From NCBI GenBank assembly GCA_015055815.1, contig SVHM01000001.1, positions 41,774 through 105,773 on the forward strand: DNA of 64,000 nucleotides, in the 5' to 3' direction. Positions 19,180-19,273 of the stretch are shown piece after piece (position 1 is the first letter of the stretch; every line of letters begins with the position of its first letter). Source of the DNA: Clostridiales bacterium. Lineage in GTDB: Bacteria > Bacillota > Clostridia > Christensenellales > UBA1242. A program made the position numbers and the translations under genes. The notes beneath the pieces are model-generated. The model saw nothing but the letters and a program-made list of their open reading frames with translations. It was not told the origin of the DNA and did not search any database.

Positions 19180-19273
19180 GAATTTGAAGTAAATTAGCAA
19201 ATTGGAATAAAGTATGAGAACGAAACAACTTAACTTTAATATTACTATGCTTAAACTCATAGTTAATTATATA
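19180..19273 (-). repeat. Copy B of the 94-bp perfect inverted repeat (rep fragment in the noncoding right end)
   Basis: Exact reverse complement of 17665-17758. It is flanked by hairpins ACCCGT/ACGGGT (~19088-19102) and CCCCTTA/TAAGGGG (~19291-19309). Confidence 0.9.

Follow-up and report, generated by a model that had tools for sequence, protein, structure and literature searches.

In the plasmid pT181, the replication origin lies inside the rep coding region, and rep is controlled by countertranscripts that arise from promoters of their own. The hsdS shufflons, with repeats of 85 to 333 bp, and the G segment of phage Mu and the C segment of phage P1 are inversions mediated by inverted repeats. 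Among filamentous phages, the closest described systems are the IMEX phages CTXphi and VGJphi, and the locus analyzed here is like them in several respects: a small inovirus-like genome without an integrase lies beside a dif-like 11-6-11 palindrome near a turn of the GC skew, of its two flanking sites, one is a perfect host site and the opposite one a degenerate site of phage type, and prophage arrays occur at the site. It differs from CTXphi and VGJphi in that the host is a gut Clostridia MAG and the nearby recombinase is a single, XerS-like one instead of XerC/XerD.

The window, by which we mean the whole 64-kb stretch of DNA that was analyzed (G+C = 28%), contains the prophage, its host site, and a recombinase gene of the host, as follows:

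12809-19422, plus strand: inovirus-like prophage of about 6.6 kb, with a 22-bp direct repeat, the att core ATATAGTAAGTGTTCGCAAAAG, at 12809-12830 and 19401-19422
13692-14549, plus strand: Zot/pI-like morphogenesis ATPase with an N-terminal transmembrane segment and the Walker A motif GAVKVGKT; blastn match to the Zot gene of bajarodino virus 1
19411-19438, no strand: dif-like 11-6-11 palindrome, TGTTCGCAAAA GACAAC TTTTGCGAATA, the host site on the attR side
20753-21799, plus strand: host XerS-like tyrosine recombinase, matched over its full length by NCBIfam NF003462 XerS (E = 2.9e-55)

The inovirus-like character of the element, known from sequence alone, consists in a Zot/pI-type ATPase together with a small circular genome (in the range of about 5 to 8 kb), a rolling-circle Rep, and small hydrophobic proteins. 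The hydrophobic proteins are 41 and 82 aa long and coat-like, and the prophage also encodes a glycine-rich 336-aa protein with a C-terminal anchor; Pfam and PHROG searches with the product of 13692-14549 returned no match. Syntenic prophages occupy the same site in related loci L001, L005, and L006, and relative L003 is a 5.2-kb contig whose 30-nt terminal overlap is consistent with a circle. An earlier note on this DNA had taken the element for a CTX-like phage that carries rep and whose right end is noncoding, and this description stands: the element is small and filamentous in type, lies at a dif-like site, and encodes no integrase.

The gene content of these elements varies between relatives. 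The minus-strand gene upstream of the origin (16572-17357) encodes a DUF2726 membrane protein in the window, whereas the same slot holds an ORF of 85 to 87 aa in L004 and L041 and is empty in L005. The small genes that follow rep (18440-18963) swap among p86/p53, p80/p66, p80/p60, and p54 sets (L002, L004, and L040-L046), and an HTH repressor module is present in L043. The cargo slots of these phages are highly modular.

With respect to integration, we observe that a relative whose Rep is 83% identical (L002) carries attP, its right end (promoter and core) being joined directly to its left end, and that L003 shows the same free or circular order. The palindrome recurs at the right ends of related prophages in about 10 host genomes, and the left junction of the prophage in the window (12821-12850) is a degenerate, phage-type site with a longer spacer. 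The consensus of the palindrome is CTATTCGCAAAA-Gnnnn(C/G)-TTTTGCGAATAG, at about 1.3 kb from the XerS-like gene (in the window and in L001, L006-L010, and L045). It does not resemble classical dif, and the cumulative GC skew peaks at about 21-23 kb. The XerS-like gene scores 187 bits against an equivalog cutoff of 267, has PDB matches to XerD, XerA, and XerH, and is syntenic with lexA-miaA-mutL-mutS in relatives L001 and L006. No integrase is encoded in the prophage or in the circular L003, and the XerS-like enzyme is presumed to be the integrase that the phage uses; the system looks like one of Xer-exploiting (IMEX) inoviruses in gut Clostridia with a single recombinase.

Two further observations concern the surroundings of this site. 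Between the dif-like site and the XerS-like gene lies a CD-NTase_C-like gene (19720-20601, minus strand) with a weak match to the NCBIfam "anti-phage nucleotidyltransferase" model, and it is syntenic in L001 and L006, which makes it a putative defence gene at the phage landing site. In L045 (129-14827), and likewise in L046, two different inoviruses stand tail to tail around a single perfect dif-like site, and inverted attL-type sites mark the outer limits of the pair; the palindromic site apparently accepts phages in either orientation. The only inverted repeat in L045 is formed by the p80 genes of its two different phages (257 bp, 84% identical).

Replication of the element centers on the following two features:

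17478-17505, plus strand: putative plus-strand (double-strand) origin hairpin, GTTACCCCTACGTCT/AATAGGGGGTAAC (= GTTACCCCTACGTCTAATAGGGGGTAAC), with a pT181-like loop and covarying stems
17551-18426, plus strand: rep, a pT181/RepD-type (Rep_trans) rolling-circle initiator of 291 aa with a KLYNK tyrosine motif and its ATG at 17551

The Rep of the window matches Pfam PF02486 below the cutoff (E = 8.9e-4, 19.3 bits, cutoff 29.6), and 18 of 40 family members match the same model at E ≤ 0.01 (best, 5.5e-6). A profile of the Rep family matches the RepDE structures (PDB 4cwc/4cwe) at E = 7e-9, with KLYNK aligned with RIYNK, and residues Y183, N184, and K185 are invariant among the homologues. Published work names R189, Y191, and K193 as active-site residues (PMC4797284). 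The likeness to the pT181 family (RepC/RepD) thus comprises the (R/K)xYNK motif, the match to the RepDE structure, and the sequence TCT/AATAG in the origin loop, which equals that of pT181 IR-II: the loop TCTAATAG (17490-17497, on a G/C stem) is identical to NC_001393.1 at position 4367 and invariant in 10 relatives (L001-L008, L040, and L041), and the G/C stems covary. We infer a plus-strand origin at 17478-17505, with the nick between 17492 and 17493. Unlike in pT181, this hairpin lies 58 nt upstream of rep, and the region of the repeat is not the origin.

In database searches, the 90% cluster that holds the 291-aa Rep of the window has a 71-aa truncated form (P0123) as its representative; the full-length Rep search listed no identical match, and its "best hit 86%" is hence a quirk of the cluster representative. 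The Rep search of IMG/VR gave no match, and a search of a plasmid collection found nothing.

Within this prophage, part of rep is present a second time, in inverted orientation:

17665-17758, plus strand: arm R, the original copy, comprising rep codons 39-69 and the first base of codon 70
17759-19179, plus strand: segment of 1,421 bp bracketed by the arms, with rep codons 70-291, three small ORFs, a terminator, and a structured noncoding element
18440-18700, 18708-18794, and 18802-18963, plus strand: three small ORFs 3' of rep, within the bracketed segment
19180-19273, minus strand: arm R', a 94-bp copy of rep codons 39-69 in inverted orientation

By direct string comparison, 19180-19273 is the exact reverse complement of 17665-17758 (94/94), with 1,421 nt between the arms, and the bases immediately beyond both ends of the repeat are mismatched, which gives it sharp boundaries. 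In a self-BLAST of the 64-kb window, the arm pair is the only repeat at E < 1e-6 (E = 1.6e-42). Both the perfect inverted copy and its sharp boundaries had been claimed from the letters alone and are confirmed; the coordinates of the arms are likewise correct, and the extent in rep, given as codons 39-70, has to be read as codons 39-69 plus a single base. A sensitive BLAST for a larger, degenerate inverted duplication around the block detected nothing past the 94 bp. Measured from the inferred nick, arm R begins 172 nt downstream and spans 172 to 265 nt. By analogy to pT181, arm R was also considered as the phage origin, a candidate that is ruled out by the pT181-like nick hairpin upstream of rep, and no conserved hairpin was found among the relatives in the arm R region (codons 39-69).

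The 291-aa Rep homologues align colinearly and without gaps across codons 39-69, and it follows that the copy in rep is the original and the noncoding copy is derived. The same colinearity rules out that the block is a mobile mini-element inserted at both places. At the DNA level, the rep genes of relatives are only 70 to 84% identical to the window in the arm segment, indicating that the copy was derived from the resident rep.

Since the source is metagenomic, and amplification is known to produce inverted chimeras, an artefact of assembly or amplification that placed the block there as a chimeric insertion has to be considered. Two JGI metagenome contigs from different samples (L037 and L038) are, however, 100% identical to window positions 11802-25963, both arms included, the Rep of the window (NCBI MBE5757331.1, MAG Clostridiales bacterium) was found on 24 contigs, and a 44-aa ORF that crosses the right junction of the copy was called on 5 contigs. 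An artefact would require two chimeric junctions, and these would have to have arisen alike in two separately assembled samples and in the 24 contigs with the same Rep; the left junction moreover is found again in two diverged variants, which come from three other samples and were put together by two different assemblers. An identical structure in independent assemblies is not a quirk of one record, and we regard an artefact, including the misassembly envisaged in the earlier note, as excluded for practical purposes. The 94 bp are genuine: in this lineage only, a segment of the resident rep has been duplicated, in inverted orientation, in the noncoding right end of the prophage.

The right end in which the copy lies contains these features:

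18957-18986, plus strand: intrinsic terminator closing the rep operon; a homologous hairpin and T-run are present in L002, L040, and L041
19071-19156, plus strand: structured noncoding element, with an outer stem AATGGCAAT/ATTGCCATT around the hairpin ACCCG-ttgca-CGGGT
19274-19365, plus strand: lineage-unique spacer of 92 bp with a G/C hairpin (19291-19309) and a mini-ORF (19322-19348, MKLKCNNL) with an RBS
19366-19394, plus strand: strong sigma-70-type promoter, TTGACA-17-TGxTATGAT, at the attP boundary and directed away from the copy

On the plus strand, the last small ORF (ending at 18963) is followed in order by the terminator, the structured element, the copy, the 92-bp spacer, the promoter, and the att core. 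Phage DNA in plus orientation adjoins the copy to its left and to its right, and the copy would be carried along in the circular form. It lies about 130 bp from the att core, and arm R about 1.6 kb from it. The block was also considered as a part of attP or dif and rejected, the attP core being a separate 22 bp and the arms having no dif-like half-site. The arrangement is in this respect unlike the folded single-stranded attP of CTXphi, since the att core here is a 22-bp identity between duplexes, with the arms 1.4 kb apart.

The structured element has an outer stem of 9 bp, shows compensatory changes at 7 pairs (RNAalifold, 6 relatives), and folds better than shuffled sequences (z = −2.7). 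It is located between p82 and Zot in L003 (2258-2332) and L005 (5742-5797) and after the rep operon in the others, and it is reversed in L040 and L041. We consider it a candidate packaging signal or minus-strand origin; an Rfam scan of 12400-19800 gave no match. The spacer has no homologue in any related locus examined. Its mini-ORF region weakly resembles rep codons 114-121 (17892-17934; 74% over 43 nt, 15 nt exact, in direct orientation), a marginal similarity that was reached by 2 of 100 shuffles. The spacer hairpin was also tried as a degenerate inverted origin and rejected, with about 13 of 19 matches, mostly in C/G runs, below the best chance-level match.

The promoter at 19366-19394 is conserved in the attP of L002, where it faces the structural genes. 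It is the strongest promoter of the element and faces the structural genes (13029 onward) when the element is circular; in the prophage, it is cut off from these genes and reads across attR and antisense to the host gene at 19720-20601. Expression of the structural genes may depend on circularization or on tandem copies.

With respect to the distribution of the repeat, no long-range inverted repeat is present in L001-L036, a set of gut Clostridia MAGs and metagenomes with Reps 28 to 86% identical to that of the window, and none of this kind is present in L043-L046, where L045 has only its p80 pair. L043 and L044 (p60 cluster) are relatives in normal orientation with neither repeat nor copy, and they are uninformative on the partner junction described below. 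An exact 32-mer from the repeat, searched in the JGI metagenome set and IMG/VR, gave no match. The conservation in related elements that the earlier note had proposed to look for is thus not seen in these other loci, and the repeat appears to be a feature of one lineage rather than of the family.

Two sister variants provide the exception. With Rep residues 1-69 as the query, only two clusters were matched, both of them 71-aa truncated Reps. These are encoded on contigs L040 (ENA ERZ28594031) and L041/L042 (ERZ27318261 and ERZ28594384, identical over 932 bp). These contigs, 0.8 to 1.2 kb long and drawn from three samples, fall into two variants, whose identity to the window is about 95% and 92%. 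All have the same order, with the origin hairpin, rep codons 1-69, and the repeat, followed by the reverse complement of window 19179-18960; the switch to the inverted right end falls exactly at the end of the repeat, the structured element, the terminator, and an inverted small gene follow, and the rearranged rep terminates 2 codons past codon 69 (71 aa). The junction between noncoding flank and repeat is the same as in the window, with a homologous but diverged adjoining flank, which indicates that the inverted copy is older than the split of the variants. Furthermore, L041 is named as a k141 contig, presumably a MEGAHIT contig built with a k-mer of 141, longer than the 94-nt repeat; with k-mers longer than the repeat, the path through it would come from single reads and not from a mis-walk in the assembly graph.

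Of the two junctions that a simple flip would be expected to leave, only one is present in the sister variants, and no rep 3' part of these variants is on record in a collection that excludes genes left partial by a contig end. For the window's own sequence, the ORFs that a flip would create were looked for in the 15-billion-protein collection and are not there. The window strain shows one orientation only, on 24 contigs, and appears fixed in the rep-intact state. In L041, we also observe an abrupt onset of divergence at the rep-proximal edge of the repeat.

The repeat in the two sister variants is nearly unchanged from the window (94/94 and 93/94), whereas rep codons 1-38 differ at 4/114 and 13/114 positions and the adjacent noncoding flank is about 10% different (Fisher P = 0.0002 and P = 0.002). 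Relatives further removed show 19 to 30% divergence in the rep segment of the repeat. A repeat that is conserved while its flank has diverged indicates that the noncoding copy tracks rep and is not decaying. The likely causes are gene conversion between the two arms, or a recent origin together with patchy recombination. After allowing for the coding constraint on its partner, the excess conservation of the repeat is only suggestive.

These rearranged contigs bear on the proposal that the block is the remnant of a second, truncated phage copy in inverted orientation, which would have integrated tail to tail with the first at the palindromic dif-like site, a later deletion having fused the right end of one phage to the inverted rep of the other at codon 69/70; the sister contigs would then be a longer version of the remnant and the window a further trimmed relic of 94 bp. 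The tail-to-tail pairs of different inoviruses at a perfect dif-like site in L045 and L046 show the required arrangement, and the other strand of L040-L042 leads from a phage right end into the 5' part of rep, inverted, and on to the origin and the upstream gene, so that these two elements of the second-copy idea are borne out. In the window, however, the block sits inside the plus-oriented intergenic DNA of its own phage, to the left of attP; beyond it come the spacer and the attP promoter that L002 also has, both in plus orientation, then the core and a normal host flank, and the trimming of an inverted neighbor cannot restore a plus-oriented right end. In addition, 100% identity to the resident rep, against 70 to 84% for other lineages, speaks for an intragenomic copy. 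We therefore think it unlikely that the block is such a remnant.

Alternatively, the repeat could be a selected cis element, acting as a duplex platform in the single-stranded genome (for priming, packaging, or protection), as an antisense regulator of rep, or as the arms between which rep would be turned ON and OFF by programmed inversion. When the plus strand is folded in silico, its minimum-energy structure contains every one of the 94 pairs, with a duplex of about −101 kcal/mol, the block is better conserved than its flanks across the three variants, and both arrangements of the bracketed segment occur among the variants. The pairing of the arms that had been foreseen in the earlier note is thus reproduced; the functional reading attached to it, as a single-stranded platform or attP, is not supported, given the separate 22-bp attP core, the origin and the covarying hairpin located elsewhere, and relatives that have their own origin hairpin and covarying element and lack the repeat. 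The proposed antisense role fares no better, since the terminator at 18957-18986 precedes the copy, a consensus scan found no plus-strand promoter-like site between it and 19180, and the strong promoter downstream points away. Unlike in the countertranscript control of pT181, nothing comparable was seen at the 94-bp copy in the promoter scan.

As to inversion arms, the locus is like hsdS, Mu G, and P1 C in having a partial inverted gene copy downstream of the full gene and in showing both arrangements among variants, but it has no dedicated invertase and no alternative coding end. It is likewise unlike the Hin, Gin, and Fim switches, in that the phage carries no recombinase, the arms are 94 bp of coding sequence, and the window strain has a single orientation. 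The arrangements appear fixed in each strain and not mixed, and conversion against a protein-coding partner can explain the conservation. We consider a selected cis element, in any of these forms, improbable.

The reading that we prefer, to which we give about an even chance, is that copy choice left the repeat as a scar in this one lineage and that homologous recombination now uses it as a substrate, with nothing that points to selection. The pT181-family Rep remains covalently attached to the 5' end and travels with the PcrA helicase (PMC4797284). If plus-strand synthesis begins at the nick at 17492/17493, the displaced strand would have its 5' end tethered to a Rep that moves with the helicase, and this tether would keep the first few hundred displaced bases, including 17665-17758, close to the fork. 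If the growing end then changed briefly to this tethered strand as its template, the result would be a reverse-complement block, a copy-choice error in rolling-circle replication. The outcome would be like known template-switch insertions (copy-choice, quasi-palindrome, and FoSTeS/MMBIR events), which also give short, perfect, inverted copies of nearby sequence with sharp ends and intact flanks; unlike in FoSTeS/MMBIR, clear microhomology is absent at the junctions, and the rationale of the tethered 5' end, itself inferred, is specific to Rep_trans.

Several points count against this reading. Besides the single flip junction in the sister variants and the absence of any flipped form in the window strain, no convincing junction microhomology was found (0 to 2 nt at most, GA at the left junction), which lends template switching weak support, and the reading does not account for the 92-bp spacer. 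The 8-mer ATTTAGAT adjoins both copies, but its orientation is wrong for priming the synthesis of an inverted copy, and we take it as chance. The identity of the arms would reflect a recent duplication, or else gene conversion by recombination or by pairing of the arms in the single-stranded genome.

Once present, a copy-choice scar of this kind could give the sister arrangement (origin, rep codons 1-69, repeat, and reversed right end) in either of two ways. Recombination between the arms within one prophage would invert the 1,421-bp segment and cut rep after codon 69. Alternatively, the copy could recombine with the rep of an inverted neighboring prophage; the copy and that rep are direct repeats, so that recombination between them deletes the intervening DNA and would leave the observed join. 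The second route would also account for the abrupt divergence at the edge of the repeat in L041. Both routes make the copy a recombination substrate, a role that the sister contigs show in part.

Selection, too, could account for arms that are identical and conserved across variants, and the inverted rep patch might then be maintained for a function. As the arms of a slow ON/OFF inversion of rep, it would ground or re-arm the prophage; as a homology trap that cripples related phages, it would recombine with the rep of incoming or neighboring phages at the shared dif-like site. In both cases, the arms would pair with each other while the genome is single-stranded, and this would hold them identical. 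We regard a patch maintained for either purpose as improbable.

As a probable replication scar, the block is of modest direct importance and has its value as a natural marker. The by-products of its analysis are more notable, namely the pT181-like origin, the dif-like integration beside a XerS-like gene, and the tail-to-tail arrays. They expose a family of small inoviruses of gut Clostridia that has only weak matches in Pfam, PHROGs, NCBIfam, and the phage record collection, and, if confirmed, would extend Xer-exploiting filamentous phages to the single-recombinase systems of Firmicutes. For these phages, a 94-bp patch of self-homology would suffice to generate rearranged prophages with a split rep, and this may be one route by which phages become grounded.
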